Shown in pieces: positions 25,195 through 56,715 of a stretch of 64,000 bases of DNA (position 1 is the first letter of the stretch; each line of letters starts with the position of its first letter). A program made the position numbers and the translations under genes. Source of the DNA: Neodothiora populina (Eukaryota). The notes under the pieces are model-generated. The model saw only the letters and a list, made by a program, of their open reading frames with translations. It searched no databases and was not told where the DNA came from. The stretch is taken from NCBI RefSeq assembly GCF_041146345.1, contig NW_027191408.1:1116001-1180000 (forward strand), written 5' to 3'.

Positions 25195-26283
25195 GGCGAA
25201 GGCGAGTCTGGCAGCCGGGAGTCTGAAGACTCAGCCTGGAATGTTGAGGGTGCCTTTCTGGTTTTTACCCTTTGCTGCCTCACACAACAGATGAGTTGAT
25301 GAGAAAATCTAGACAGTGATTTTGACACTGATCGAAGTGGCAACAGGTGGCTCTTTGGTATGTTTCGTGTCGAGACCTGGTTAGAATATAGAGACGGGCG
25401 GAGCTTCCGGTGTTGTTATTGTCGTTGATGCTCAAAATAGCACGCAGACCAGCGAGTGACAGGGGGATCAAGCGATTGTATGGGAGTCCCGAAGACGATG
25501 CAAAGAAAAACACCAAAAGTCCAATGTTTTCTTGTCAAGTCGATGGATAAGGTAGGCAAAGACAAAAGAATCACAGCAAGGCGAGGTGAACTACCTTACT
25601 ACTGTGTAGGGCAACGGTCCGGTAGTATAGACAGACTCGATCCAAGGAGGCTTACACTTGCTTACCTTAATTAGCTTGTGCTGCTGTCCCTCTTCTGGCT
25701 CTCTCGTTTGGGGGACTCGCCTTTTGCCTCACCAGACTGCACTAGACACATACACACACACATTCTACCTTTACTTCTCTTCGGTCGACTAGAAAGCACC
25801 AGCATCTGCATCACACTCCCAACTCGCACTCAATAATGGCGGGAGCCCGTGCGTGCAAGCCAGAGATCGGCAGCCTGACACTCCCTGCCTATTACTTTGC
25901 ATTATTCATATCAATGCCGATACGAGAACATCAACCTCTCCACCCACCGATCATCTTGCCGCGGGAGACGGTACAAGTACTGTAGACGTCAGCAACCACG
26001 GTGAACTCTCCCCTGTATCATGATGCATTCTACTCTTGAGGTGTATTCCATTTTGTGCCAGACTAAAGCAGAATTCAATCAACATGACGGCGCAAGACCT
26101 GGACTGTGCCCGCCCGTGCTTTTCTTTCCATCTCATTGTATCCCTTCTCCCTTGCTGTTTGTTTCTTATCGGACACTTCTGCTGCATCATCCTCGACTGT
26201 AGAAAACGCCAGAAACATACCATTGTGGTTGTAGAGCGCTTTGTTTTCATGTGTAGGCCCAAGCAAAAAAAAAGAGAATAGAA

Positions 26284-26293
26284 CTAATAATAG
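26284..26293. promoter_or_regulatory. Rlm1/RlmA (MEF2-type MADS box) consensus site in the shared csmB/csmA bidirectional promoter
   Basis: CTAATAATAG = CTA(A/T)4TAG, in the ~3 kb between the divergent start codons (25194 and 28210). Confidence 0.5.
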
Positions 26294-28209
26294 ACCCTGC
26301 AGATGGACAGGCTAAGAGAGAGACAAGGCAAGGCAGGAGGCGGAGCTGCTGTTGGTCAACAACAGCGTCGTGCGGGCGGGCAGATGCGGATCCACGCCAG
26401 CCATCATCCATCATCGCTGGGGTGGCTTGGCTAAAGCTAACCCTGGTAACTCACCACTCCCGCCCATCCTTGATGCATGAACGCGCAATCAAGCGTTCTG
26501 CTGTCTTGTGTCGTGTGGTTCGGCGAGCGTGTTGCCGCAGAGTATGCTTGATCGGCCGGTACTCTGTGATCAAATCGAGAATTGTGCAATTGTGGAATAC
26601 AGTAGTACAGACTCCTCACCGCAATAATAATATAGTCCGGATCCTACAACATGACCCGTCGTTTTGAAAAGGCGTTTAGACTGTGCTCCGCTCAACCCCA
26701 TGGCCATGCTCCATATTGTATGAGATTTCACATTTAGCACCAGCCCCCATCATCTCATCTCACTTCTCCTGGGAAGAAGGCCAGAACCACGTCCGGCCAT
26801 CGGTTCGCCGGTAGCAGTGCGGATGTTCCTATTTTCAGTCACGAATATCCACCTCCCTGTCTTCTGACCATGAGCTGTTTGGTATATCAGCATCGCATCA
26901 CAACGAGACAAATTGACCCGCGTTCTCATGGAGATGGCACTGCATGTGAGGCGAACTCGATGAACCTAGTGGCGGCGAAAAGAAAAAAATAATGCTATCC
27001 ACAACGCCACTGGCTGAGCTGACCAAAAAGTAACCCCGCAAGTGCTGCAACGCTAAAGTGATTTAGCTTCGTATCCAAAACAACATCACGTTTGGGACGA
27101 TTGTCATCGCTTGCTTGCGAACGCGAGGCCAGATTTACAGATGATCATACCATTAGTCAAGCACAACCCTTCTGTGGTCGTCGGTTCTAGCAGGAGAAGA
27201 TGACACAATGCGAAAGTCGCGGTGTCGTTCAACTCTTGTGTAGGAGAGATACCTAGAGTATTCGTCGTACGGTTTGACACTTTAAATGCTCGTATACCGA
27301 TACTGGGGATATTCAAAAATAGATGGCAGTGCAAAAATACCCGAGTGCCTCGTATCGTTGACGAGTTCAACGACGGCGCTTGGTCTCACCGGCGGTGCCT
27401 GAGGAGTGTTCCTCGTACCTTCACTGACCTGTGCTCCGGGCTTGCTAAGAAAAGCAACACGTCCCGGGCGCGCTTCCTCGAAGTGGCCTAGCTCGATGCA
27501 TATCCCCCTTCCGCAGAAGTCAATCAGTGGTGTTGGTTTGTCAGTTATGAGTTGCAGAATGTTCGGTGGCAGCCACTGCTGTCTTCGAGTACTGTGGTGG
27601 TAGACAGAAAGTGAACAAAAGGTCCGTGTAAAGGTATGCATTTGCCATCACAGCCAGAATCCACAGATCAGTACTCGACCCGTCCGTAATGCACCTTAGC
27701 AGCTTTATGCTCTACCTTACCCTATTGTGCTAGTTCTTGTACTGTGCTTGCAGTACCGAGTCTTGGTCTGTACTTTGGCTGTGTCTGGCCGCCATCCAGA
27801 CACATGTGTGTAGCCCTTTTTGATTCATCTCTATCTGACCGTTGTTATTCCCCTCTATAACAAAAATACTCGAATTCGTCATTCGTTAGTCTTGCTATTC
27901 AGTGTGTACGGGACTCGACTTTTGTCAAACTCTCGCTCGCCCTCTTTTCTCTCGTTACCACGTTATTGCCGCCAGGTCCCACATAACAACACTAGCAACT
28001 TTGCACAACATCGACCACCTCCGGTTGAGACAGATCAACATCATTTACCTTCGCGTCATCAAATAATCCACGCCTAGATCTGCGTCGAAAGCAGAGGGAA
28101 CAAGAGGTTGATCAACACAACAGCACGGATTACCATCTGCAGCAAATAACGGTATAAAACCAACAACACCAAGAGTCGTCGCCCTTCAAAGGGTGACGTT
28201 CGAGCCATC

Positions 28210-31200
28210 ATGGCTACCAGCGGGATGCCTCAGCACACGCAGGCCTCGTTGCCTGCGTTGCCTGCCCATCTCCAGACGGACACGCATCTCACAGCACATC
28301 TCGCCAGCAGATTCCATGTCTCTTTACCGACTGCCCAGCTGTCTTCGAGTGCTATAATCTCACTGAACACTTACACCTCGTCGACAAAAGGCCCTGATGG
28401 AGGCAAGGAGGGCAGCGCCATGGGCGCTGCCGAAGAGCTGGCCGCAAGAGCGTGGTCCAGACTGGGCGCCAGACAGGAAAACCAAGCCGTTGTCTTCCTG
28501 TAAGTCCTGCTCTTCGACAGAGCCGCTTTGGTCCATAGGACAATGATGATGATGTTCTTGTTGTTCTTGTTTTGATCGATACTAACACACCAATCTCCAA
28601 CAGGGGCGAGAGTGGTTCCGGCAAGACGACAATTCGCTCACACCTGTTGTCCTCCTTACTAAATCACACCTCCACTCCACTCTCCGGCAAGCTCTCGTAC
28701 GCCGCCTTCGTCTTCGATACCCTCACCACCACCAAGTCGGTCACTACGCCCACTGCTTCCAAGGCCGGTCTCTTCTTCGAGCTGCAGTATGAGACGACCG
28801 CCACCCTTCACCCTACCCTCATCGGCGGCAAAGTCCTCGATCACCGTCTCGAACGCAGCCGCATCGCATCGGTGCCACCCGGAGAGCGCAGTTTTCACAT
28901 CCTCTACTACCTTCTCGCCGGTACCAGTCCAGCCGAGAAGGACCATCTGGGCCTGAACCTCACTACTTTCTCCGCCAACAACAGACACTCGATTGGTGCC
29001 TCGCAAAAGAGATGGCGATACCTGGGCCACCCCTCCCAGCTCAAGGTTGGCATTAATGATGCCGAAGGGTTCCAGCACTTCAAGACCGCTCTGCGTAAGC
29101 TTGAATTTCCTCGCGAGGACATTGCCCGTATGTGCGAGATCTTGGCCGCTATCCTCCATATCGGTCAACTCGAGTTCGAGAGCACTCAATCCACCACTCC
29201 TGCACCTGATGATTCCGGCGGCTACTCTCATGAGGGTGGCGAGGACGTCACGGCCGTAAAAAACAAGGAGGTCTTGAACATCGTCGCTGCCTTCCTGGGA
29301 GTCAGCGAGAGACACCTGGAGGAGAGCCTGGGATACAGGACCAAGACCCTCCACCGTGAACGTGTCACTGTCATGCTTGATCCCAAGGGCGCCAGAGAGA
29401 ATGCCGACGAGCTTGCTCGCACCCTGTATTCTCTGCTGGTAGCTTTCATCATGGAGAAGGTCAATTCGAGACTCTGTGCACCCGAAGACAGCATCGGAAA
29501 CACCATCTCCATCGTGGATTTCCCTGGCTTCGTCCAGACGTCCCCAACCGGTTCCGTGCTTGACCAACTCCTCAACAATGCCGCTACCGAGTCTCTCTAC
29601 AACTTCGCCCTCCAGTCCTACTTTGAGCGCAAGGCCGATTTGCTCGAGACCGAGGAGGTCAGCGTGCCTGCTACGAGCTACTTCGACAACACAGACGCCG
29701 TCAAGGGTCTGCTGAAATCTGGCAACGGCCTACTCAGCATCATGGACGACCAGATGCGCCGCGGAAAGTCAGACATGCAATTCCTTGAGAGCATCAGGAA
29801 GCGTTTCATGGGAAAGAACCCTGCCATTGAGGCGGGTAGTGCCTCTGCTCACATTCCTGGTAGCAACTTTGCCACGCCCAATGCCGCAGCCACGTTTACC
29901 GTGAGACACTTTGCTGGAGAGGTCGACTACCCCGTCGATGGTCTTCTCGAGGCCAACGGCGAAGTCATCTCCGGCGATCTCATGAACCTGATCGCAAAGT
30001 CTTCAAGTGACTTTGTTGTCGAGTTGTTCGGCCAGGAGGCGCTGAACAAGGTTGTCCATCCCCGTGAGCGATCAGCTGTGGTCCAGGCGTCCGTGGCCTC
30101 CAAGCCCTCTCGCATGCCTAGCACCGCGAAGCGAAACGGAAGACCTGTCCGACTCGGCACGAGACGTGACCAGGACGATGGCAGTGATGAAGGCGGAAGG
30201 AGCGCTTCGAGGAGCCGTAGGATCGATGCCGGATCGCAGGAAGGTGCTGCCGCTCAGTTCGTGACATCTATCAACAACATCACCAAAGCGCTGTCAGCTC
30301 CGGGAACGAACCCTTACTTCGTCTTCTGCTTGAAGCCCAACGATCGAAGAATAGCCAACCAGTTCGACTCTAAGTGCGTCCGCACTCAAGTCCAGACCTT
30401 CGGAATCGCCGAAATCAGTCAACGTCTGCGGAACGCCGACTTCAGTGTGTTCATGCCCTTTACGGAATTTCTCGGCGCCGCCGAGGGCGAGGTGTCAGTC
30501 ATTGGCAGTGACAGAGAGAAGGCGGAGATGATCCTCGACGAGAAGAGCTGGCCCAGCAATGAAGCCCGTGTGGGCGCTACTGGTGTCTTCCTTTCCGAGA
30601 GATGCTGGAGACAGGTGGCCAACATAGAAGGACTCGACGCAGCTCCTGCCAGCTATCACGATGAGACAGCCTACGGCGAACACAATGCAGCAGGCCTTCT
30701 GACGCCTGATGCGGCTGGCCGAATGAACCAGAGCGATTCAAGAATCAATCTGCTCAATTCTACGGCTACGTCGCCCGGTGCTTTCTACCATGATGACAAA
30801 ACTGCTGGCTACTTCGGCAGCAGGGATCTTGATGCGAAATCTGAGGCTGGTGCTTCAGCATTCCACCAAGGCGACATGTTCCATAACCTTGAGACAAGAT
30901 CACAACTAGCCGAGAAGGGCAACGAAACGAAAATGGCCGAGATCGACGTGCTTCCAGTCAGCGGAAGTCGCAAGAGATGGCTTTTCTTCGTCTGGTTGTG
31001 GACCTGGTGGGTTCCCGATTTCTTCATTCGGAAGATCGGTCGTATGCCCCGCAAGGATATCCGAGTGGCATGGCGAGAGAAGTTTGCGATCAACATGATG
31101 ATTTGGTTCAGCTGTGGTTTCGTCGTCTTCTTCATGATAGGGTTTCCCGCCCTCATTTGTCCCACTCAGCATGTCTACTCGGCTGGCGAATTATCTTCTC

Positions 31201-33950
31201 ACAACGGCAAAGGCAAAGCGAACTCGTTTGTTTCCATTCGAGGTGTCGTGTTCAATCTCGGCGACTTTGAGAACGTTCATTACCCAAACATCGTTCCAAC
31301 CAAGGATTTGCAAAAGTATGCCGGAATTGATGCTACAAACTTGTTCCCCATTCAAGTGTCTGCTCTCTGCCAAGGCGTAAATGCCACTGGTATCGATCCC
31401 GCCGTCCAGCTCAATTACAAAAACACAAACTACACCGGAATGGCTTCGACTATCAGCAGCACCGACAAACACGCCCAGTACCATGACTTCCGCTGGGCTA
31501 CCAATGACTATCGTCCCGATTGGTTTGCCGAGCAAATGATCATGCTGCGAGGAAACTACAAAAAGGGCAACATCGGATACACAGCGAACTACATCAAGAA
31601 GCTGGGCAACAAACGACAGTCAATTGCCATCATCAACAAACGCATCTACGACTTCACCGATTACATTGTCGGCGGTCGCACCTCGCAGTACCCTCCCGGC
31701 ACCGATATGTCAACTGTCACTCCTCCAGATACCAACTTCATGGACCAGGATCTCGTCGACCTTTTCCAGCAGCGTGCTGGTCAAGATATCACCAAGGACT
31801 TCAAGAGACTCGACATGGACCCAGGTCTCCGACAACGTATGCAAACTTGCATGGACAATCTTTTCTATGTTGGTGATGTCGACCACAGAAACTCCGCTCG
31901 TTGCTTGTTCGCAACTTATCTGCTGCTTGCTATATCCTTGTTTTTGGTTGCGGTCATCCTTGTCAAATTCGTCGCCGCCCTGCAATTTGGTGGAAATAAC
32001 ATGCCGGAGAATCTCGACAAGTTCATCATCTGCACTGTCCCGGCATATACAGAAGACGAAGACTCCTTGCGTCGTGCCATTGATTCTGCTGCGCGAATGA
32101 AGTATGACGACAAACGCAAATTGCTTATGGTCATCTGTGACGGTATGATCATTGGTCAAGGCAACGATCGTCCCACGCCTCGCATCGTCCTGGACATTCT
32201 TGGTGTGCCAGAGACCGTCGACCCAGAGCCTCTGAGTTTCGAATCTCTCGGTGAAGGACAGAAGCAGCACAACATGGGCAAAATCTACTCCGGACTTTAC
32301 GAAGTCGGTGGTCACATCGTACCCTTCCTTGTTGTCGTCAAGATTGGAAAGCCTTCCGAGGTCTCTCGTCCGGGTAACCGTGGTAAGCGTGATTCTCAGA
32401 TGATCTTCATGCGATTCCTCAACCGTATCCACTACAACATGCCCATGTCGCCCCTGGAGCTGGAAATGCATCATCACATACGAAACATCATTGGTGTGAA
32501 TCCGACGTTCTACGAGTTCTTGTTGCAAATCGATGCCGACACAGTCGTCGCTCCTGACGCTGCTACTCGCTTCGTCGCATCTTTCTTGCATGACACCCGC
32601 CTCCTTGCTGTGTGTGGTGAGACAGCCTTGTCCAACGCCAAGTCTTCCATTGTCACCATGATGCAAGTCTACGAGTACTACATCTCACATAACTTGATCA
32701 AAGCATTCGAGTCCCTCTTCGGTTCCGTCACCTGTCTTCCCGGTTGTTTCACCATGTATAGAATCCGTGCCGCGGACAGTGGCAAACCCCTGTTTGTCAG
32801 CAAGGAGATCATCGACGACTATTCCGTCGTGCGTGTCGACACCTTGCACATGAAGAACCTTTTGCATCTTGGTGAGGACAGATATCTCACGACCCTGCTC
32901 CTGAAATATCACCCCAAGTACAAGACAAAGTTCATCTTCCGCGCACACGCCTGGACTATCGCTCCCGACTCGTGGGCTGTCTTCATGTCTCAACGTCGTC
33001 GCTGGATCAACTCTACTGTTCACAACCTTGCGGAACTTGTTCCCATGGCCGAGCTCTGCGGTTTCTGCTGTTTCTCCATGAGATTCGTTGTCATCCTCGA
33101 TTTGATCTCCACTCTCGTCCAACCAGTGCTTGTGGCTTACCTGGTCTATCTGATTGTTCGTATAGCGGAAAACCCGTCCGCGATCCCTGTCACGTCTTTC
33201 GTCATGTTGGGCGCTGTGTATGGTTTACAAGCACTGATCTTCATTATTCGTCGCAAGTGGGACATGGTTGGCTGGATGATCATCTACATTCTTGCTATTC
33301 CGGTCTACTCACTCGCTTTACCATTGTATTCTTTCTGGCACATGGATGATTTCTCATGGGGTAACACTCGTGTGGTTGTCGGTGAAAAGGGCAACCAAGT
33401 CGTCGTGTCCGATGAGGGCAAATTTGATCCTGCTTCAATTCCCAAGAAGAAGTGGGAAGATTATCAGGCGGAGCTGTGGGAGGCTCAGACACAGACTCAA
33501 TCTCGTGCAGGCGACTTTGATGAGACTAAGAGTGTCATGAGCGGTGTGTCTTACGCGACAAGGTCTCAATTCCCTGGCATGGGCGGCAGCAGCGTGTATG
33601 ATCAACATGGATACGCATACCCACCCTCTCGAGCCATGTCACAACTTGGTGTACCGCCCGCCGGTGGTCCGTTCAACCAATCGAGGTTGTCGGTCGCTCA
33701 ATCTGCATATGGCGGTCACGCTGGTTTCGACCCGCAGCATGGCGGCATGGAGATGACTGACATCTCTAATCTGCCTACCGACGATGCTTTGCTTGCTGAG
33801 ATCCGCAACATCCTCAGCACCGCTGATCTAATGACCATCACGAAGAAGGGCGTCAAGCTGGAGCTCGAGCGGCGGTTCGGTATACCACTTGATGCGAAGA
33901 GAGCTTACATCGGTTCCGCCACCGAAGCTGTGCTCAGCGGGCAATTGTAA
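28210..33950 (+). CDS. csmA: Class V chitin synthase with myosin motor domain (CsmA/ChsV/Chs5 type), ~1878 aa; exons 28210-28499, 28604-33950
   Basis: Intron 28500-28603 (GTAAGT..ACTAAC..CAG) yields [13 protein letters not shown] (intact P-loop); [17 protein letters not shown], b5-like domains, [39 protein letters not shown]-like tail. Confidence 0.97.
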
Positions 33951-43066: not shown

Positions 43067-45910
43067 TATAAATCTCTTGTCGTTTCCTGTGGACACTTAC
43101 GCTTGTGTGATTTGCCATTGAGCCGTGTGATGGGCTAGGACATCGGGAACGCAAGTACCGAGAGGTGGATGAGAGATAGAACAACCCCAGTCTGGTCAGT
43201 CCTGGGCACTAGTCACCTAGAGCTGCAAGGCACGCTGGATCTCTTCGCTTCCATGGATGGGAACAGACGTGTAGAGATTCAAGCCGCGGAACACCCATGC
43301 TCGTCGGATCCATGGTGGCAGATTTGACTGAGAAGTTGCAGACGTAGTCTGCCGACAAGCTTTATGTCATGAGTGCTCCGTATGGAGCAGAACATACACA
43401 AACATTCCACGGGAGAGGCTTGCGTCACTCGCTGAATCGGGTGTACTGTTGTGAAGTCTATCTCAACATCTAACGAGACCCTGTAGTCATCGAAGATCCG
43501 CATTGACATGTTGGTCCTGGAGACCTGAATCGCGACATGGTGGAAAAAGCTTGCCGAGCTCATTTTCGTGCTGTCGTCCCGATCCGGGGACATCGACATG
43601 ACAAATCAATCAACAGAGACACAGGCACCCTTGGTTGCTGATCCCGTCCATCCTTGATGGCCGAGATACGAGCTAGGATCGGACACTGTGATGCTCATAA
43701 TGATAGTCGCTTTGCGCTTCACTACCTTAATTCATAGGTGATTTCTCGCTTGCTTCAATTACAGTGCTCATTTAGGTTCGTGCCGTTCGGCTACCGCTCC
43801 CGCTCGACGTCGGCTCATAAGTGCTCAGGCGATGCTGGGCAAAGCGACAACTGTTCGCTAATCGCCACTTCATCTTCATATTTGGTTGATCAAATTGTCG
43901 CTCTTGTCGATGCCATTTCATGCCGAGCTCGGCGACATTCATGCATACAGGACACCTCGACAATTGATCAGCGTCTGATGATGCGGAATCGGCAAAGCGG
44001 AGCCCGGGCCTCGCGCGGACTCTACTTGTATTGCAAAACACTCTCGTCATATATCATTGGCCGATACTATAGGCTCGGTCCAATCTAGAAATTAATTTCT
44101 CCACAAAGAGTGGTATGATAGATCATCCGTGGAACCTGTAATCTCGTCAGACGGGAGATAGGCCCATGGCTCTGTGTACCTCTGAGATCCCGCGTCAACC
44201 AGGGGGCACATGCGGTACGCTCACGCAATTGCCAAAGAGGATGATTGCTTGCTGCTACCCGGATCACCATGGCTTGATTGGATCGCAGATCTCTTCTGAT
44301 CAATTCTCAATGGCAAGTGCGCAATTACCTCAATGAGGGATCCATTTAGGTTGGGCTCCTAGCTACAGAACTGGAAAAGGATTATCGAAGTGCCTCAGAC
44401 GTATAATGCACCGAATCAAGATTCTGTGACCTGCCGAATCGAGCTGTGGGCGTCGTAAGTTATGTCCCTTATCGTCGATGGGGCCGTAATCAAATGTATC
44501 CTTGCGACTGTTGCAGCGACCCAATCTATTGGGTATATGTCGCAATTATGGTTTCACACTACTTCGAACCCCATGCAGACATGCACTGTACGATTCAGTA
44601 ACGGCATGCGTGGCTCTACGAGGGCAACCGCCATACAGCTTCTACACGTCCATTTATCGCGGGTCTGATCTTTGCCGTAAGGGATTTTCTGTGAACAGGG
44701 CACGACATGCATCGCTCCACCCACCGGTGGACCCAGTTATGATAGCACGAATATCGAGTGCAAATTACTTGCCATCGTGAATGACTCGCCTCTTCAATGA
44801 GCTTCAATGCAGGGGTATGTGGCGAGCCGGTCACACGGGGCCCCGTCCGTAACATACACCTCTGTGCAGTGGGGACTGGGCACTCAAACTCGAGTCATAT
44901 CACTGCAACCTCAACAAACCGCCTGCTAACTACAATGCATGGTAGCAATTCGATGTAGACCATATTCTGGGTGCTACCATACTTAAATCAGCACCGGTTC
45001 TGTCATCTGGTTTCCGGGTTCGAGAATAAGAACTAATGCGTGCGGTAACGCGGCAATGCGTCTAAACCAAGATATCCAAGCCATAAAAGTTCTCTCTCGC
45101 TCTACCATCACCTCAATTGCTCGGCAGCCAGAGCCACCATGTTACGCATGGGTGCATGAAATGGATGATCATAGGGTAACCTGCATCGTTAGTGGGCCGC
45201 GTTCGTAGATCCTGCGATCTCAACAAGCCATAAGGTATACCGTTCGTCCACCGCCGCTACCCAATCTTATTTCGGCGGATACCATGATCCGAGTATATCA
45301 ACGGCTAACGTAGAATTGACTAGGGTAATTTGATGGTACCGCGTGTGGTCATGCCGATCATTTGTGTATGACCATGTTTTCGCGCGACGACATGGTGGGC
45401 GTTCATGGCGGTTCCACCCTCGCTTCTATCCGCTGTCAATACCCCGAGCTGAACATGTCATGTCTGCACTTATGTCTACTCAACCCTTGATTGTCTAACG
45501 GTGTCATGGTCCTGATTATGCATGCCACGAGCATGATTCATGCGGTATTTGCCTTACAGACCACAAACGAGACCGTCAAGGCTTAAGGGTACAATTTCAT
45601 GCCGGCACCCGTTGAAGCAGGGTCTCATACATGACCCAGATTTCGAGTGGACGAGAGAGTCGAGATATATATCGCTCTTCGTAATGACAGACCAGGTCTG
45701 GCTCTCCGCTGTGCTCTCTTTCCCAAGTGTACAGCAGTGTTGCATTTCGACGAGCGTTGATGATCAGCAGCCCCTCTCATCTACGTCGGGGTCCAATACT
45801 TCGGTACATCCAAAGACATCGTGTTGCTAGCGGCCGCACACAGAAGTAGCAGCGCTGTTCCGCAGATTCCTCGACGTCGAGTGCACTTCAACGAGGGCTT
45901 GTGTCCTGGT
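43067..45910 (+). ncRNA. Candidate structured long non-coding RNA block 0 (boundaries approximate)
   Basis: TATAAA at 43067, no credible ORF, many stems seen by eye (e.g. perfect 10 bp 43706-43715/43839-43848; 15 bp 43885-43900/43958-43972). Not computationally folded; strand inferred from TATA orientation. Confidence 0.3.
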
Positions 45911-46317: not shown

Positions 46318-47258
46318 ATGGCAAACAACTTCTATGATGAGAGACTCATCTCGCTTCTCCAACGTATCGAAGACAGGGAGACTGCAGGAAAATTCGTCTC
46401 AATGCTGGACAACCTACAAAATTCAGCCAGCGACGTGAATGAGACGATAGCATTCTTAAGGAAACTGTTCACGTACAGCGAGGAGGAACAAAGGCTTCTC
46501 CTGTCCCATCGCAATCTACAAAAGCACTTGCATGTCGCGTGCAACCGTAAAAGCCCTCGTCAGTATTTCTCCAGTCTGTCGAAAATCGGTCGTGCTGACT
46601 TTACTGGAAAGAGCGTCCTGCTACTCAGACAATGCCGAATGAGCCCACACCGATCCAACCCGTCAAAAGAAACTCGAAGAAACAGCGCACTGGCAAGCTT
46701 GGGGCAAAGATTCCTCGATCCACTGTCAACTGCACTGAAAAGAATTGCAGTAACGTCTACAGAAAGGAAAGATTCCTTAGAGAGCACCTTGTGCTTGGCC
46801 ATGGCGATTCGAGAGACTCGGCTAGTGACCGAGCGAAAGCCGCCTTCGCCCAAATGCGAGGTGAACATCACACCAGACCGAGTCTCATATCTGAAGCGTC
46901 CTCGAATCGCCCACCATCTCAGATGCTCAGCGATGTCACCGGCTGCGCAAGCTCCGAAGCCGAGCTGCTGCTAGTGTCGCCCAACAATAATAACAACAAT
47001 AACAACATGTACAACAACACTTTGTCTCGGTCCACTTCAGCCCCAAGCTTCATGAACGTATACAGTCCAATTGCAGCAGTGAACGGCGACACCACTCGGA
47101 TGGATCCACAATACAGCTCGTCTTATTTTTACCCCAATGGGCAAATTCCTTGGTCTGCGAATTTGACCGACATGAACAATCCGCCTCCGTCGGGGGCTGA
47201 CACGCGCCTTGTGACACTTTACCCACCGCAACAATACGCCGAGATGCACTGGAATTGA
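46318..47258 (+). CDS. Orphan single C2H2 zinc-finger protein A, ~295 aa; exons 46318-46558, 46612-47258
   Basis: Intron 46559-46611 (GTCAGT..GCTGAC..AAG) joins two ORFs in frame; basic patch KRNSKKQRTGK; finger CTEKNCSNVYRKERFLREHLVLGH (46731 onward); poly-Asn and low-complexity tail. Confidence 0.75.
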
Positions 47259-47554
47259 CGTCTGTCGTACGAACTCTAAGTGAGTGACAGCGCCATGAAA
47301 GTCGATAATGCTGCAGCAAGAGCCAGTCAGGACGAAGTCTGACCACAAGCGCATATCGAACAAAAGATATAAAGATTCTCCTATGTTTTGAGCCTCTCAC
47401 GACTAGTATGATCCATTACTCTGCCACGCGGAGATGGTGAACACCTTGTGGAGGAGATACACAAACCATGTTCTCTGTTTCTGCATTCGCTCTTGGATTA
47501 TTTTCTTTTGTTCGGCAGGATACCCATTGCTGCGATTTATTTCTACCGCGCTCT

Positions 47555-48410
47555 TATAAACTCATTCCTATATACACAAAACATAGTCATTCAACATGTT
47601 TGAAAACCAAAGTCTTCGATCTGCGGTCTTCAGTCTGGGCAGTCTTATGCACAACCATTCTCGACTTGCTTCTAGACCAAGCATGCTTGTACCAAGCGTC
47701 GCACAATAGTCCAGGCCAGTCCAAGTTCTGGCACTGGCGCTGTTTCTTTAAGCTTATGCACGTAACGCACCCTGCAAAGTCACAGTGCAAGACTGGACGG
47801 AAGGACGGGGCGGGCGGCGCGGGCAGCGGCTTGTCCTTCCCGTCGACGATCCAAACGACGGGGTCTCGCGGCGGGCGGCCGGGCGGGCTTCTCGATCCGA
47901 ACATCCCGATAACGAAGGAAAGTCAGAAAATCCCCCGGGGTGAAAACCAACTGCTTTCCCACCGCACTTCTCGAACGAGGGCCGCTTCGCCAACGTACAG
48001 CAGTGCCGTGCAGGGAAGTGCAGGGCAGTGCAGGGCAAGGGCTCCTTCGTATATCGGTAAAACCTGTCGATTTGCATCTGTGTGCCACATTTTCCCATGC
48101 GCTCTCACGTAGTAGAACGGCCAAGAACTGAAATGGGTCGTAATTCCTTCCCGCTGGGTAAGCTTAACCTAATCTGAAAAACGGTGCATGAACTTGAAGA
48201 TGCCGCGCGCGCGCTGCTGTACTACACTACTGGACTGGGGGTTTTCCATTTGGGGGGGGCGGAAGCCATTCACGCCCCCAAGGTCCATGCGATACATGTG
48301 TACTTGACCTTAATTACACACGGGATGAGCTCCACGTTGGATTTAGCGTCGGGCCTATTGTACCAGCGTCATGGAACCACCACAATGATATATTGGGGAT
48401 TTTGAGCTAC
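47555..48410 (+). ncRNA. Candidate structured RNA block 1 (possible paralog of block 2)
   Basis: TATAAA 47555; 14-bp stems 47796-47809/47830-47844 and 47906-47919/48043-48057; shares the two-part motif with 49392-49627. Confidence 0.35.
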
Positions 48411-48901
48411 TGTAGTGTGCTTTCTTCGAGGTCAATGATCCTTTGTACGATGATAAGCACGAGTCAAACTTCAAATGTTTCTCCAACCTGCTGAGACGAT
48501 GTCCAAACATGCGACGATGACGGCGCGGATTTCACCCCAATCTGCAATGCCAAATGCACTGCCCGTTCGCGATGCAACCCTGCGATGTGTGGTGATCGTT
48601 ACAGCAGGCTTGCCAGCCCAGTCAGCCAAGCCGTCCACACAGAGCAGAGGATAAGAGAGATTACCTTCAAGGCTGCAGTGCAGGGACGGGGGTGTGCACT
48701 ACGTCTCTCCAGATCTGTAGCTTTTCTTGCTTTGCTCTTCCGGGTCTTTGGGTTTCGAGTGAGTGCTAGATGTGACCACTCCTATCATGAAAGCCTTCTC
48801 TCCGCCGTTTCGAACAATGGTAGCGTGGCAATTTAGCTGCCGTATTTAAGGTTGAGTACTACACCGCTCGAACAGCACAATGGCACTGCAGTCTTTCGGT
48901 T

Positions 48902-49740
48902 TATAAATAGTCTTCGACCGTTTCCTCAGATCTTGATCTGGAGAATCATGTCCAGATAGCACGAAGGTAGGAGAAAGTCGGGCCCTGCGAGAAGAAGGAA
49001 GCGCATAGGGTCGAGTTTGGGGGCTTAGGCTAAACCCAGATAGGGAAACGCAACACGGCGATGTGAGGGTGTATCCTCTGCCTCACGATTAGACACCCCT
49101 TCTCTCTGCTAAGGGACGCCTTTTCTGTTCACCGTCTCGTCATGCCTGGTTCTTGAGTCGCGAGGGCAGACCACACGCACCTACTCACCGCCAATTCGTG
49201 AGAGAGGGAGTGATGGTCTTGCTAGACCTAAGGTCCTTGAGGGACCTCGATAAGGCCGAGGCCCTGTTCAAGTGGCTTGAACACGACGGAGCCACTCCCC
49301 GTTAGCACTGCGCTGCCGGAGTGAACACCTACGAGCGGATGCGGACACTAGACGGTCTACGTGAGGCAAGCAGCTGCCCCCAATGGCTTCTTGTCGATTT
49401 TGCATCCTTCCATATGTGGCACATTTCTGGCGAACCAGGGTCCGGAGTCTACACTGGGAGGAGCCCAGAATTTGGTCAGCGCTGGGCTGGGATCCAACGG
49501 ATGTCGAATGCCGGCCAAACCAGTAGCGATTGCAGAAAGGGCATACGGGCATTTCGACCCCTTTTGATTGCCGGACCATAGTAAAAGCCGGTGATATGTA
49601 GGATGGGGGCGGATGGATTTTGTGCGTGCGGAAAAGTTGGTAGACCTCGCCTTTTGAAACAATGGGCGATAAACTCTACTGTTTGGTTGGCGCAGTCCAC
49701 CATCCTTTTCGGCTCTAGAGGCAGGCGAGGGACATGCATG
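48902..49740 (+). ncRNA. Candidate structured RNA block 2 (possible paralog of block 1)
   Basis: TATAAA 48902; dense hairpins including a multibranch domain at 49206-49299; shares the two-part motif with 48065-48349. Confidence 0.4.
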
Positions 49741-50306
49741 GACAATATATATCCCGCTTCAGCTTCTCAAGCATCGATAGCGCATCGATAACGCCTTCCC
49801 TCGGCTTGTAATGCCGTCCTTCGTTACATGACGTGGCTAATCCACAAGCAAAGCAATTAGAAATGGTATTCTGTACGTGAAATACAGCCTCGTAATCTAT
49901 CGGGTATCTAGAGCAAATGTGATCGGAAAAAAGCGCCAGCAATTAAAATATCAGGAAAATTATGTGTCCATAATCAAATCATCTCAATGTCAGGGCATGC
50001 AGTGGTTAAGGGAAAGTCGAAGTCATGATGCAAAGGAAATAGATGTCATCGAAGATGACTCGGTAGGAAACATGATGACACTCTGAGAATGGAAAAACGT
50101 CTGAATCCATGAGTGCATCTCGATCGCTTGCCTGTGTCCAGGGCATCTCGCTGGCTCACAAGACAGCGCGATCGGGGATCACCGGGAGGCAACTGGTCTT
50201 CCACATGGATCGTGTCATGTTTACAATACTGTCGACATGTGTTTGTGTATGAGTGGATGGTGCAAGGGGGGCCATCATACAATCGTGGTTGTCGCACACC
50301 CTTGTT

Positions 50307-51562
50307 TCACATGTTTCTCAACGATAAATCGTCGAAGGTGGTGTACGGCTGGGTATCAGCGAAGCTGTTACCAGTAGGGTCCGTGGTCACGCCAAACAGA
50401 TTATCCTCGAGATTCGTACGGGTCTGTTCTTGTACACTATTGTTCAGTGCATCCGTAACTTGGAATGTGTCCGACGCGATGAGGTCTAGATCCATTGTGG
50501 TGGAGTCAGGATACCTGAAGGACCCCGATTCAGATGCCCAACCTCCGACTCCGCCAAGCTGTTGTATAGTTCGCGGATGAGTAGGCTGCAATTCGAACCC
50601 GATCGCAGTGTTTACGTCGGGATCTGGTGTATTTGCTGGAAGACTAGACGTCAAGTCCATATCAGGTTTGGTGTCGAAGAGCTGTTTTGCAATATATTTT
50701 GCGTCTTCCACCTCCTTGTGATGTACCAACGCGAGATGCTCTCTCAAGCCTCGAGCTCTCTTGTACACTCTATCACAGTCTTCAGGGCATTGGATGGTGG
50801 GGACCTGTGAAGATCTTGTTGATACAGATGATTGGTAAGAAAGGTTTGCATGGTAGCCCACTTGAAGTCCAGGTGTTGTCACTGCAGCGTTGCCACGAGA
50901 GGATGAGGAGATCATGATCGGAGCTGCACTAGTAAGACTTGAGCCTGCTGACTGGTATCCACTACTTGCTCTTCCAGAAGTATCTAAAACAAGGTCAGAT
51001 TAATGAACATGGATGGGTATATGTTTGACTTACAGTGCTGAGAGAAAACAAGGCGAAAACTTCCTTCTGGATCTGGATCCGTAATAATGGTTTGTACTGC
51101 CAGTGCATGCAACCCGGCTTTGCGGGCCAGATCTGTTGCAATGTATCGATGATGGTGAATTACATTGATGAGGTTGAAGGCCTTTTCAATACCAATTTCC
51201 ATGAGTACAGCCGAGCAGCCTCTGTCAGATGGGGATGTAGGTACAGATGAAATTATCCCAGTAGAAGGAGTCACAAGTATTATCCCCATTCTCTCTGGAA
51301 TCAAGGAATACCATACTTTGCAGATGTTGGAGACGTTGATCTCGGGAATACAGATATATCGTATCCTACCACCAAATTTTCGATGGAGTCTTAAAACCAA
51401 TATGTTGCCGGTGCCTTCTGCTATTGTGTCGCATATTATGACTTGTTGATGCTCAAGAAGAGGTAGCGAGATGTTGTACTCTTGCCTGAGCGCATCCAAC
51501 TCGATCCTCCATGCCTGAAAGAGTGACGGGATGATGATGGAATCTTTGAATGGTTGTGACAT
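50307..51562 (-). CDS. Orphan single C2H2 zinc-finger protein B, ~401 aa; exons 51562-51034, 50983-50307
   Basis: Intron 51033-50984 (GTAAGT..TCTGAC..TAG) fuses the 192-aa and 202-aa ORFs in frame; finger CPEDCDRVYKRARGLREHLALVH (50789 downward); acidic tail. Confidence 0.75.
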
Positions 51563-52490
51563 CCGGGAAATTGTGTAGAAGTGAGTATCAAGATACTTGT
51601 TCGGCGAAGTGGGAGATAGCTGAGAGATGACTCGGTTGATCCAGAGGAGTGATGGGTTTGGGCAACAGAGGTTTACATCTCAAAGCCAGTCTGTGGCGCC
51701 CCAGGCTAGGTACTTTAGTATTTGACTTGTACTTCAAATGCAAATTCAGGCGAACTTAAAGTGGAGAAGCCAATACAAGTCACGTCAGATGACCATCTAC
51801 AGCATGGCCGAGCCACAAATGCCATTTCTCGAGTCTAAGCGCTGTTTGATCGAACCAAACCAATGGAGGACTCTCGAAAGGCCGTCTCCGGTCATTTCCA
51901 TCGAAAGACAGCGACGCTACTTAGACACTAATAGCTTGCCGGCAGTAAGTGACTTTGAGAGGCTCGGGTCGTTTCTGCTCATTCGTCTATCATACGACCC
52001 GGTGTAGCGAAGCGTGACACATGTCACTCTCCTGGAGTCGACCGGCGTCTGGAAGCCGCATCGCCTTCGTCTGCACAGCGTTTCAGAAAGTCGCCACACT
52101 GACAAAGTCGACTTTTTGTCAGAATTCCTCTGATAGTCTTGCGAAAGCTACTACTAGAGTAGCATTTGTCCTGTAGCCTTCAATAAGAAACCGATTTGAA
52201 GTATTGGACGGTCATCGAAATTCTTCCGAGGTCGAAGTCCCCGCCTTTAGTGAACATAACGGGGTATCAGCGTAACTGTACTCAAGCCTTTTCCTGTCAT
52301 AAACGGTTTCTTAGCATCCATGGCACTTCAATGCCGGTATGTTACCAGTCAACATGAGGTGGCCTGACACTAAAAGAGACCACAGTGTGTGAGTACACTA
52401 GTTGCAGCTCGCGCTCAAATTGCAGCGCAACTTCCAACATTCTAGACAACCCAAACCTTTGCCTACTAAGGTGGTCCATGGCACACGACC

Positions 52491-55150
52491 TATAAAATCA
52501 ATTCCAAATACGACCCAACAACCGGCAGAACCTCTCTATTGTCGAGGGACGACGTCAACCATATACGCGTGACGAGTGGACCTCTATGTGCGGCCGAAAT
52601 GCAGCTGAATTATTTCATAGTAGCCGCATCTCTGTAGCAGTATGCAACATGAAAGTATGATTTAGAAACAATCGCTTTGACCAAGAATCGCTTCACCGGC
52701 CCGACATGCGCTAATCAACCTAGTCTTGCAAGCGCTAAAGACTTAGAACATGAGGTAAATTCAACTACCAGGTCTACCAGTCTATCAGGTCGTCTTCTTG
52801 GTCGTGGTAGATATCGCGAAGTTGACTATCACTGACTTTTTCTCCCTAGCAGAGTCCTGAAGCATCTTGATTCGCGGTTATCCTCATGTCAAACACAAAT
52901 CTCACAAATGCCACGAACATCGCTTTTGACTACTACTGTGGCGAACAACAGAAAAGTTAAGGCGTTATAAGTCGGGAGGTGTTGTGTGTACAATCTCGAC
53001 GCACAAGCCTGTGTGATATGCGTATCTTGCATATATCATTTATGCGAACGGGTGTGGGAAGAGGGCCATGCGGTACGCACGGTGGACATGTATCAGAAAG
53101 ACTACATTGCTTATAGCCACATAATGTCGTAAACTGCATATACTAAGGTTTCGACTGGCCTTGATCACGACGTCGTAGAACAACTTATGCATGGCTTGAT
53201 CAAGAACATGGAATACTGTACCCAGAATGCAAATGGGCATGTTACCTCCCGTATAGCTTAGATCGTAGAACTGTGGTCGGTAGACTAATCGCTTCAGTGT
53301 AGCCTATAGGCTCCAGATATGTCCTGAAGGTCAAGAGCAATGGTAGTTTCCATAGAAGATGCCCACAAGCTGTTTGGAAAGTCGGATGGCGGGTATTGAT
53401 GCGGACCTCTGGCTCCAGCCTCGTAGTCGGCTACTTGGTGTCGTTGCGCTGAGAAGACACTGAAATCTTTCTCCGACGTTGTATCGACTTGGCTTTGACA
53501 CGGAGTCGGTAGACTTCACTGTTCCACTAGACTGGCGCTACATGTCGCGACGTATTGGATATCCACCAGAGCTAGCCAATAACATACCATCAGTCGTAAG
53601 TCGGTGGTTATTGGCTCCTGTAACACCGTCCGGCATAATAAGCAAAGATATCGGAATATCTGCACTGTTTTTCGGCATTCATGTAGACTCCTGAAGTCAT
53701 ATGACCGATATGCCTCAGATTTCGAGGATATAACACAAGATGGGAAATGCCTTGATTTCAACGGTCCACAAACTCTTCGAGCGAGTCACAAGGATTACCG
53801 CGTTAGGTAAATGGAAAACAAAGCAACACCAGGCTATTGTAAGATAAGGAGCTTGCGTGAGAAGGCGAGTAGCATTGACACAGGCAAAGTGAAGACTAGA
53901 GTGAGAAGCTTAGAGATCGGGAGAGAAGGTTCACTGTCGACCACCTGCACCCTTCGTGGAGGAACTATGACGTGACTCCTTGGACATTGCTACATCCGAC
54001 CATGAGATGGAAAAGACAACAAATATCGGCGACTAACAAGCCGGGTGTTGATGAGCGCCGTGCGATGATATGTGGTACGCTACGAGTATTGCGATGCAGT
54101 TACTGATCTTCTTCCACATGACCTGGAGGGACACTAGCCGTTTCACAGAAGGCAAACCTGAAAGTGTGCAGACCGTTGCAAACCGCACGGGAATAGGAAG
54201 TACCCAAGAGTTTATTGGTGCCACGAAGATGGCGACGGCGAGAATAGCGAGGTTGAGACAGATTTGTGCAGGTAGCGTGATCGAAGAAGGCGTCTCCCGA
54301 AAAGCACCAGCATTATGATACAGACAACAGTGAACTTGCCGAGGAAGGAACGCCTGCACAGCGCTTTCTCGACAATGCATCTTGTTCTATCCAGTAATAC
54401 TGTTAGACGCATGTGTCCATATGACGAGGGCGGCGCAATGACGGTCCGCATTGGTATGGTTGTTTGGAAGATGAGGCATCCAATTTCGCTATCGATGGAG
54501 GATCGGACTTGTGAGTGCTTATCAGGGCGTGGGATATCGGACTTCCTAGCGCTCCAGCTGAAATCACCGCATCAGCGACGACCTCACAGATCGTGGGGTG
54601 CAAGGGGGTCATCTAGCTTTTTCTCCATCTCTCGTCCGCGACGAAGTAAAATTAGTATTCTAGGCATACATGCACATGTCACGAAAGGCTGATACCATTC
54701 GGTGTCAGCGCCAGCTCTTTCTGGAAACAATGTCCTTGTCCGATTGAGCCAAGATCAAGCGTGGTCCGGCATATGATCACAAAGCGTAAGCAACCCACCG
54801 CATGCATAAGACCGACCTTAGTATTCGGTGCCGAAGGCAGCCGACATATCGTGAATACCAAGCTTTTTACATTTACACTAGCTTCGCCTCCTGCGAACGT
54901 CGCCAACGTGAACCACATGTTGCTTGTAGTCCAACCAGAATCTGAGGAATCCGTGGTCTGTACGTTGCTGCGCTGTCTAGCTGATACGGCGTATGTCTTC
55001 CCTGAAACCATGATCACGAGCACAAAATGAGGGTACTTGGTGACCTGCATCCTCGTCTTCAATGATCTTCAACGAATGTGCCGGCGTCCTGCATTGCATA
55101 CAAATTGCCCTACGCCTTTTTCTTCTACTCGTAACGAAATGCAGATCACC
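52491..55150 (+). ncRNA. Candidate structured long non-coding RNA block 3 (boundaries approximate)
   Basis: TATAAA 52491, no credible ORF, stems such as perfect 10 bp 53574-53583/53607-53616 and hairpin 54688-54709. Not computationally folded. Confidence 0.3.
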
Positions 55151-55422
55151 TCGAGTAGGCTCAAGGCGACTCATCTACAATTATCAATGATAGTGCATAC
55201 ATATCTCTGAAGTCGAACATTTAAACGCGACATCTTCCCAGTTCAGTGTCTTGACCCCGTGCATCTTCTCCTGACTATCGTAAGTACGAGAACCCCTCTC
55301 TGGTCTGTCATTGTCACCAGATCCGCTTCCAAATCTGCACACAGGCCCTTAAGGATTATGCCTATGCCAAAGGTCGTGAACAACTCAATCAATAACTTGT
55401 CAACATATGAAACTTCAATAGC

Positions 55423-56180
55423 ATGGCTTCACGCATAACCCACGTTGCGGACGAGGAATCCAATATACAAAACATCACCTTACTCGTAAACGAATTTGGA
55501 CCTGCAAAGGCACTGCAAGTCAGCAATTCCTTGTTCAGCGTTGGTCAAGCCTGTGTCCAACAAATTTGCCAGTCGCACCAACAGAACCTCGCGGTGCTAC
55601 GGTATCAGGATATGTCGCCGAGTAAGTTGACCTACCTTTTGTGTGTTCACTCTGTAGACTTACATCGAGAGCAGATGGGGACCAACATTCGAGGAGGCAC
55701 AGACCGCGTGGCTCACGATACAGACCGGGATCAAAGACGTGAGTTCCAGCAATGCTTGCCTCATATCTTACAGCTGGGAGCTAACACTATAACAGCCCTA
55801 CAAGAAATGCTGTAGCAGGCGTGGCGGAATTTTGTAGAGTTCCAGGATGCCAGACCCGAGTCGCATATAAAACTCCCCGGGGTTATAGAGAACACCTCAT
55901 CTTGAGGCACAACGAGCCCTACATTTCTGCTGTTGCAGCAGCAAAAGCGGTATTCTCTCGAGATAGGCATTCTCGGTCTGAAGGATCCATCAACGACTAC
56001 GTCTCAGGGGATGAATCCTATACGTCCCCTGCCGGAACAAACCAGCCTGACACCGACAACACAATGACCATGTGTGGCTACGGAACAACTCCTATGCGTG
56101 ATTCGATCTTTTCATTCGACTTCGACGATGGGCATGGACAAGTCCACGACGAGTTTAGTCTCTCAGCAATACGCAATTGA
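55423..56180 (+). CDS. Orphan single C2H2 zinc-finger protein C, ~215 aa; exons 55423-55621, 55675-55738, 55796-56180
   Basis: Introns 55622-55674 (GTAAGT..CAG) and 55739-55795 (GTGAGT..GCTAAC..CAG) give one open frame; basic exon 2 (HSRRHRPRGSRYRPGSK); finger CRVPGCQTRVAYKTPRGYREHLILRH (55833 onward); acidic/aromatic tail. Confidence 0.75.
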
Positions 56181-56715
56181 TCGGACCCGAGCGAGCAGGC
56201 CCGGTTCCCCTTTTTGTCGTTTGTTATTGCTTAGTTCATTCTTTGCTTGTCTCATTATTTGATTGTCTTATTATTCACTTGTCTCATTATTTGCTTGTCT
56301 TTGTGCAGGACTTAGCGGGTTTTCGGCTTTTTGCATCGATACCAGTTTCGTTTATGGATATACTGTACCTAATTGCATTCGTATTGACATACAATTTGAA
56401 CACATTATTCTTCACATAGGGCTTGCATGCGCTCTAGGAAATCGAAGTTCGCACCCGCTTGGTTTAGTGTTGCAGTCGAGGCGCTTGATGCAGCTCGGCG
56501 CTCTTGAAGCGGTCCTAAAAATCGGGCAACTTAGTCGAATGAAGTAGACAGTTCCACAAGCCATTCTCGGACATATTAGCAATGAATAATCTTGGACATT
56601 AACTATTATACCTCTCTTCTGATATGTACGACTAACGACATTTATAACACACAAGAGCGCATCCATAACTCCAGAAGCGCCATCGATACCCAAATCCCAC
56701 GAAACCACTTTCACC

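Follow-up and report, generated by a model that had tools for sequence, protein, structure and literature searches.

The window analysed here is a 64,000-nucleotide (nt) stretch of the genome of Neodothiora populina (contig NW_027191408.1, positions 1,116,001 to 1,180,000 of the forward strand), and all positions given below are those of the window. Between a malate/lactate dehydrogenase gene (41.9-42.9 kb) and a gene for a transporter of the major facilitator superfamily (MFS) lies a gene-sparse island of about 13.7 kb, whose only convincing genes are three genes designated A, B and C. Each of them encodes a protein with one C2H2-type zinc finger and, directly behind the finger, a second helix (Table 1). 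Judged by their sequences, the three genes are deeply diverged, old and tandemly clustered paralogues, and it is highly probable that they are real members of one paralogous family. In an earlier reading of the same DNA (the original prediction) they had been described as orphans.

The three fingers and the wider family

The resemblance between the fingers was claimed to go beyond the generic C2H2 pattern, and pairwise BLASTP comparison of the exons encoding them bore this out. Exons A and B matched with 37.0 bits (E 8e-8, 18 of 42 residues identical), A and C with E 1e-5, and B and C with E 9e-6 (14 of 30 identical). The codons for the first Cys and the last Phe of the unit were found where the original prediction had placed them (Table 1), and 14 columns are identical when all three are aligned, among them those of the predicted A-x3-AK-x2-F motif after the second His. 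Across the family alignments nine columns are invariant (C, C, R, R-E-H, H, A and F). In the helix after the second His, which can be written A-x3-[AK]-x3-F, the A and the F were the same in 10 of 10 rows; in a 15-row family alignment the A was again invariant and the F at least 90% conserved.

As a non-circular test, a profile of the finger plus helix was built from seven outside relatives only and compared with the 1656 six-frame open reading frames (ORFs) of the window. Genes C (E 2.3e-16), A (3.5e-11) and B (5.1e-10) were recovered, and the next ORF followed at 0.39. Profile searches detected no further family copies or relics within the window, the next best E values being 0.58 and the 0.39 just mentioned.

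The spacing of the ligands differs between the genes: it is C-x4-C-x12-H-x4-H in A and C-x3-C-x12-H-x4-H in B, both of which conform to the classical C-x2-4-C-x12-H-x3-5-H pattern, and in C the interval from the second Cys to the first His is 14 residues. The [FY]-x5-[LY]-x2-H-x4-H register is retained in all three. Over the finger module, which comprises 55 columns, A, B and C are mutually 33-36% identical and equally distant from every other member. In a tree of this module none of the 12 inner branches was well supported, and the branches were very long (3.0-4.6 changes per column). Neither DNA-level similarity between the genes nor direct or inverted repeats were found in the island, except for one 16-nt tandem array (see below). 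Taking into account the very long branches on which the tree puts A, B and C and the lack of DNA-level repeats, the duplications appear to be old. The description of the genes as deeply diverged paralogues thus agrees with the module identities and with the absence of residual DNA similarity, and the long branches would also fit the suggestion that the family evolves fast.

A profile made from the three genes retrieved 78 proteins at E≤0.001 from 1.84 billion representatives. Most of these were multi-finger C2H2 proteins matched over the finger proper only, and a distinct subset matched along the whole profile. Three more proteins were obtained in a word-seeded search with a 10-sequence profile, bringing the stored set to 81. 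When this set was scored with the 10-sequence profile, 13 members were found at 38.9-83 bits, and all others listed were generic multi-finger C2H2 proteins with at most 25.3 bits. The members whose organism is known are gene C of N. populina and three hypothetical proteins of Delphinella strobiligena, KAF1345161 (P0039), KAF1345158 (P0068) and KAF1345217 (P0080), which score 65-82 bits against the family profile. Both fungi belong to the Dothioraceae (N. populina: Dothioraceae, Dothideales). The remaining 9 of the 13 carry no species assignment, and several of them seem to consist of little more than a finger exon. The three Delphinella genes are on one contig of 1.76 Mb, and two have accession numbers that are three apart, which suggests that these two are near neighbours.

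Since relatives exist, the genes are not orphans. The related claim that the family is specific to a lineage stood up in these searches: by sequence, the family appears to be narrow, unnamed and lineage-restricted, its members with a named organism all coming from the Dothioraceae (Neodothiora, Delphinella). It also does not coincide with a named family, as had been supposed. Gene B gave a weak match to Pfam zf-C2H2 (E 0.0029, 18.4 bits), which is below the 25.2-bit cut-off, and comparison of the family profile with the sequences in the PDB yielded 0 matches at E≤1. The motif-profile search proposed originally found no scattered copies within the window, and there was no Pfam match to a transposase at E≤1. 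In the protein atlas the top clusters for exon 2 of gene A were hypothetical proteins (0.93-0.95), below the recognition mark, and C2H2 families scored under 0.9 and can serve as leads only; exon 1 of gene B had no usable match there. The titles and opening lines of abstracts listed for N. populina and D. strobiligena contain no description of the family, and a literature search on fungal single-finger proteins with a basic region returned no paper, which is weak evidence that the family is undescribed.

Two proteins outside the family, P0012 and P0025 (approximately 1000 residues, multi-finger, 20-25 bits), have one finger near the C-terminus that is followed by a similar helix of the form acidic-Ala-x3-Ala-x2-hydrophobic. 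The helix-capped finger may occur more widely than the Dothioraceae family.

Gene models, transcripts and the surroundings of the genes

The exon-intron structures were derived with the help of run X2, which is of the same sample as the likely source run of the assembly and is labelled 'DNA?'. Because its contigs make three exact, intron-sized GT..AG skips in two genes and cover the region in a patchy, gene-wise manner, we take X2 to be a transcript library, the only sensible reading. Run X3, from another sample, contributed short collinear pieces only and zero joints. Genes A and C are transcribed and spliced (Table 1). For gene A a donor at 46547 (GTAAAA) was ruled out by the transcript, which puts the donor at 46559. 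The model of gene B is a prediction only, since no transcript contig covers this gene. The spliced products of A and C are 295 and 215 residues long, respectively, and the predicted product of B has 401 residues. As the original prediction had proposed, the N-terminal region is followed directly by a phase-1 intron in each of the genes; for A and C this is established by the X2 joints, and for B it is predicted from the DNA sequence.

Table 1. Exons, introns and transcript of genes A, B and C (window coordinates). The limits of the finger plus capping helix are the first base of the first Cys codon and the last base of the last Phe codon.
Feature	Position	Strand	Content and evidence
Gene A exon 1	46318..46558	+	80 codons + 1 base; N-terminal helical region; ATG at 46318; X2 contig 46324-46558 joins 46612
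Gene A intron	46559..46611	+	53 nt, GT..AG, phase 1; X2 joint 46558->46612; CTGAC branch-like site
Gene A exon 2	46612..47258	+	Basic linker, finger + capping helix 46731-46847, Asn-rich/acidic tail, stop; X2 contig 46642-47049
Gene B exon 1	51034..51562	-	176 codons + 1 base; long N-terminal region, at its end a DPDxxxSFRLxFS patch in common with Delphinella P0039; predicted
Gene B intron	50984..51033	-	50 nt, GTAAGT...TAG, phase 1; predicted from sequence; removal joins two ORFs in one frame
Gene B exon 2	50307..50983	-	Ser-rich linker, finger + capping helix 50789-50676, acidic tail, stop
Gene C exon 1	55423..55621	+	66 codons + 1 base; N-terminal helical hairpin; X2 contig collinear over 55117-55621
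Gene C intron 1	55622..55674	+	53 nt, GT..AG, phase 1; X2 joint 55621->55675
Gene C exon 2	55675..55738	+	Strongly basic linker
Gene C intron 2	55739..55795	+	57 nt, GT..AG; X2 joint 55738->55796
Gene C exon 3	55796..56180	+	Finger + capping helix 55833-55955, acidic/aromatic tail, stop
Gene C transcript contig	55117..56402	+	Spliced, 1176 nt, three pieces, includes untranslated ends (X2 record 13)

Codon usage was evaluated as log-odds, with nine conserved ORFs of the window as the training set and 67 ORFs of the island as the null. The gene's own frame had the best score of the six frames for all pieces of A and C, but for only three of the five B pieces.

Gene C corresponds to the deposited protein AAFC00_002311 (P0001), except for 18 residues, which the deposited model treats as intron. 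These are encoded by an in-frame GT..AG stretch of 54 nt (55519-55572), across which the X2 contig is collinear, and they align with the N-terminal domain of relatives; the extra intron probably reflects a mistake in the annotation or else a minor isoform. Word-seeded searches of the protein collections found no match to the finger region of gene A (at lengths of 117-375 residues) or to exon 1 of gene B (96-308 residues), so that at the lengths searched C is the only one of the three that is present. Because of this absence, A and B are probably unannotated. That automated annotation could miss the family had been foreseen, and the single deposited gene, shortened by residues that its transcript contig keeps, is in line with this.

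The gene content of the window is fungal: besides the dehydrogenase and the MFS transporter it includes a GH18 chitinase, an arylsulfotransferase-like gene and a Sec7/BIG2 C-terminal domain. There is also a head-to-head pair of chitin synthases (19697-33950), at 19.7-24.9 kb on the minus strand and at 28.5-33.9 kb on the plus strand, that carry myosin-motor, cytochrome-b5 and DEK_C domains; we take this pair to resemble the csmA/csmB-type pair of filamentous ascomycetes. Going by titles in the literature, N. populina is an aspen canker fungus.

Several smaller features were noted in the island. Directly 3' of the stop codon of gene C, and within the transcript contig that ends at 56402, there is a tandem repeat with a 16-nt unit (TTGCTTGTCTCATTAT, 4.6 copies, 56227-56300). 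Short transcript-like X2 contigs map to the spacers at 45713-45867 and 53249-53590, where no convincing ORF was seen, and may represent unannotated or non-coding transcripts; an ORF of 87 residues at 53043-53303 (minus strand) has no Pfam match. The open frame of 223 codons between genes A and B (47441-48112, plus strand) is Arg/Gly/Ser-rich, has neither a Pfam match nor a transcript contig, and is probably not a gene. At 48211-48283 the assembly-source run X1 splits into several short alternative contigs, with deletions of 1-2 bases at 48237 and 48252 beside runs of G5 and G8, which is most likely homopolymer length noise. Scanning 100 bases for promoters and terminators of the bacterial type yielded nothing and has no bearing on fungal DNA.

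Predicted fold and proposed role

For structure prediction the linker-finger-helix piece of gene A (109 residues) was submitted to AlphaFold2 together with the 15-row family alignment. An alignment that started with the whole exon 1 of gene B misplaced the conserved core of B and was not used for folding. The model of gene A has strands at residues 38-39 and 48-49 and helices at 52-63 and 67-85; within this block the predicted local distance difference test score (pLDDT) is 95-98, and the flanks are of low confidence. Both the finger and the trailing helix were thus obtained in the prediction, as anticipated, and the finger of the family is predicted to adopt a beta-beta-alpha fold, followed by a short turn and the second helix. 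Solved single C2H2 fingers superpose on residues ~33-67 of the model at 1.6-2.5 Å over 30-35 residues, for example 1xrz at 1.6 Å over 30 residues and finger 12 of Miz-1 at 2.3 Å over 31. With a spacing of i, i+4 and i+8, the conserved residues A, A/K and F in the second helix would lie on one face, and they probably pack against the helix of the finger.

On either side of the finger the layout is less uniform. In the 35 residues before the finger the net charge is +7 in A, +1 in B and +6 in C. The tails are of low complexity and net acidic (A -5, B -13, C -9), with an Asn run in A. The strongly basic linkers of A and C and the acidic or Asn-rich tails had both been described correctly in the original prediction. 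A folded N-terminal exon common to all three genes had been proposed as well, and for this part the outcome was divided. AlphaFold2 gave a two-helix hairpin for exon 1 of gene C (mean pLDDT 80). A fold search with this hairpin returned generic coiled-coil neighbours only, the best Z of 6.1 (GapR and the DOT1L-AF10 coiled coil) being below the level that is meaningful for helical models. A homodimer prediction for the same exon scored 0.02, which is evidence neither for nor against pairing. An N-domain profile built from outside sequences only matched exon 1 of gene C (E 0.0026) and gave no match to exon 1 of A or B; the N-terminal region of C also matches P0080 (E 4e-4), and exon 1 of B has a patch of 16 residues in common with Delphinella P0039 (E 0.005). 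At the sequence level a shared N-terminal domain is therefore supported for C, hinted at for B and not supported for A.

With a helical N-region at the start, then a basic linker, the finger and finally an acidic tail, the proteins are built like a small transcription activator. We infer that the proteins are nuclear, sequence-specific DNA-binding regulators of transcription, and give this proposal about an even chance of being right. The capped finger would bind zinc and recognise a short stretch of DNA through the major groove. Nuclear import and further contacts, to the backbone or the minor groove, would be contributed by the basic linker, as in other one-finger DNA binders, and the acidic tail, with its hydrophobic and aromatic residues, would activate transcription. 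The N-terminal helical hairpin seen in the model of C may allow pairing. In P0039 the linker before the finger has an RGRP-type basic stretch, which we take to resemble an AT-hook, a minor-groove binder.

Several observations speak against this proposal. Pfam returned no match at E≤1 to the exon pieces of A and C and none to nine relatives, and no family member reaches any Pfam cut-off. Some relatives have one residue only between the two cysteines (C-x-C in P0080), and the cysteine pattern of P0064 is irregular, which is odd for a zinc knuckle. With the finger-plus-helix model Foldseek found nothing at E≤0.001 (best E 1.3), and the best Z values were 4.6 (VIA wide) and 4.3 (VIA second look). 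Codon scores of -0.04 to 0.14 for the pieces of the three genes stand far below those of most conserved genes of the window (0.11-0.63) and exceed the island's null ORFs (mean -0.13, standard deviation (SD) 0.11) by only about 1-2 SD. Gene B has no basic linker and is free of X2 contigs, although the latter says nothing about its expression, and the N-terminal region of A has no significant match to relatives. Finally, positions 2, 5 and 6 of the finger helix, occupied by R, R and E, do not vary across the deeply diverged paralogues. Since paralogues that read different sites would be expected to vary at these positions, their invariance fits a structural or protein-contact role equally well.

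This last point leads to the strongest competing explanation, according to which the capped finger serves to bind protein or RNA and the proteins are adaptors or cofactors, recruited for example to chromatin or RNA by partners. Although clearly the less probable of the two, it is a serious alternative because of the invariant positions 2, 5 and 6, the missing basic linker of B and the C-x-C spacing in some relatives. That these positions and the A/A/F face stayed constant at a module identity of 33-36% would fit a conserved interaction surface, and the weak Foldseek rows include the zinc-finger regions of the RNA-processing proteins SERRATE and Ars2 (E 1.3 and 2.8, not significant). On the other hand, basic linkers (A and C) and acidic tails (all three) are typical of transcription factors, the finger retains the classical DNA-binding register and the H-x4-H spacing, and no RNA-binding finger family was matched, Pfam zf-met and zf-C2H2_jaz being absent at E≤1.

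Considerably less likely is a reading in which the three lineage-specific genes are of recent origin or in decay, their function conserved little or not at all, and B possibly an untranscribed relic. The weak codon bias, the branches of 3.0-4.6 changes per column, the low-complexity tails, the lack of a transcript contig on B and the absence of A and B from the protein collections could all be explained in this way. However, the frames are intact over 295, 401 and 215 codons, A and C yield correctly spliced transcripts, and relatives in another genus and in further assemblies share the same nine unvarying columns, a constancy that requires long-term purifying selection on the module. An origin from a mobile element (a domesticated BED-type transposase finger, or cargo of a large fungal transposon) might be suggested by the several copies in one gene-sparse stretch between conserved genes and by the sequence T-x-R-G-L-R-E-H-L-x3-H, which recalls the BED-finger signature, but is very improbable in view of an island whose sole repeat is the 16-nt array, the lack of further copies or relics in the window, the absence of Pfam matches at E≤1 to zf-BED (PF02892), transposases and recombinases in six exon pieces or nine relatives, and the tiny size of the family among the representatives searched. 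What chance is left belongs to something else.

For N. populina the analysis adds three candidate regulators from a lineage-restricted, regulator-like family that has been largely missed by routine annotation, two of the three genes being absent from the protein collections and the third having a doubtful extra intron. The finger plus helix is a compact unit of about 50 residues, which was predicted by AlphaFold2 with high confidence and has no close solved counterpart; because it is compact and confidently predicted, it would be easy to test for autonomous DNA binding. A more far-reaching version, which we consider improbable, is that the helix-capped finger forms a distinct C2H2 subclass that acts as a stand-alone DNA reader, and that the paralogues pair with themselves and with each other through their N-terminal hairpins, so that two single fingers form a composite recognition unit. 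Were this so, a group of tree-associated fungi would possess a small, rapidly diversifying, lineage-specific system of combinatorial regulators.

Comparison with known systems

The closest counterparts are the Delphinella proteins, which have the same finger-plus-helix module and the same order of parts as A, B and C (helical N-region, linker, finger, acidic tail) and likewise occur in three copies on one contig. In sequence they have diverged, sharing only 30-38% of the module's residues with the genes of the window, and as all of them are uncharacterised they add no information on function. With none of the inner branches well supported, the tree does not settle which genes of the window and of Delphinella are orthologous.

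Among characterised proteins, GAGA factor and SUPERMAN serve as a working analogy, since their one C2H2 finger depends on basic segments at its flanks for DNA binding. A and C conform to this pattern, with a basic segment just before the lone finger, whereas B does not (see the linker charges above). The three proteins lack the BTB domain of GAGA factor and the QALGGH helix of SUPERMAN, and no sequence relation to either was found; relative to these two, the capping helix and the N-terminal hairpin are specific to the Dothioraceae family.

An analogy for the capping helix is provided by bacteria. In Ros/MucR a second helix enlarges a C2H2-like finger into an autonomous DNA-binding domain, and the N-terminal region drives oligomerisation (PMC7663847, PMC7283297). 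Ros/MucR proteins differ from A, B and C in being bacterial, in their beta-beta-beta-alpha-alpha topology and in the spacing of the ligands; the family profile had 0 matches at E≤1 to PDB sequences, and Ros is not among the structural matches listed. The likeness is one of mechanism, and Ros/MucR is probably not a relative.

The most general comparison is with the classical C2H2 fingers of the Sp1/KLF/Zif268 type (PF00096). Two Cys and two His residues, the [FY]-x5-L-x2-H register and the beta-beta-alpha fold, which in A, B and C is predicted, are common to both. In contrast to the classical proteins, A, B and C have one finger instead of an array, carry the added conserved capping helix and have Pfam scores that are below the cut-off or absent; in gene C, moreover, 14 residues instead of 12 separate the second Cys from the first His. 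C2H2 proteins are the commonest DNA binders of eukaryotes, and lineage-specific expansions among them are to be expected. The family is a lineage-restricted variant of a very familiar domain, and not a new kind of system.

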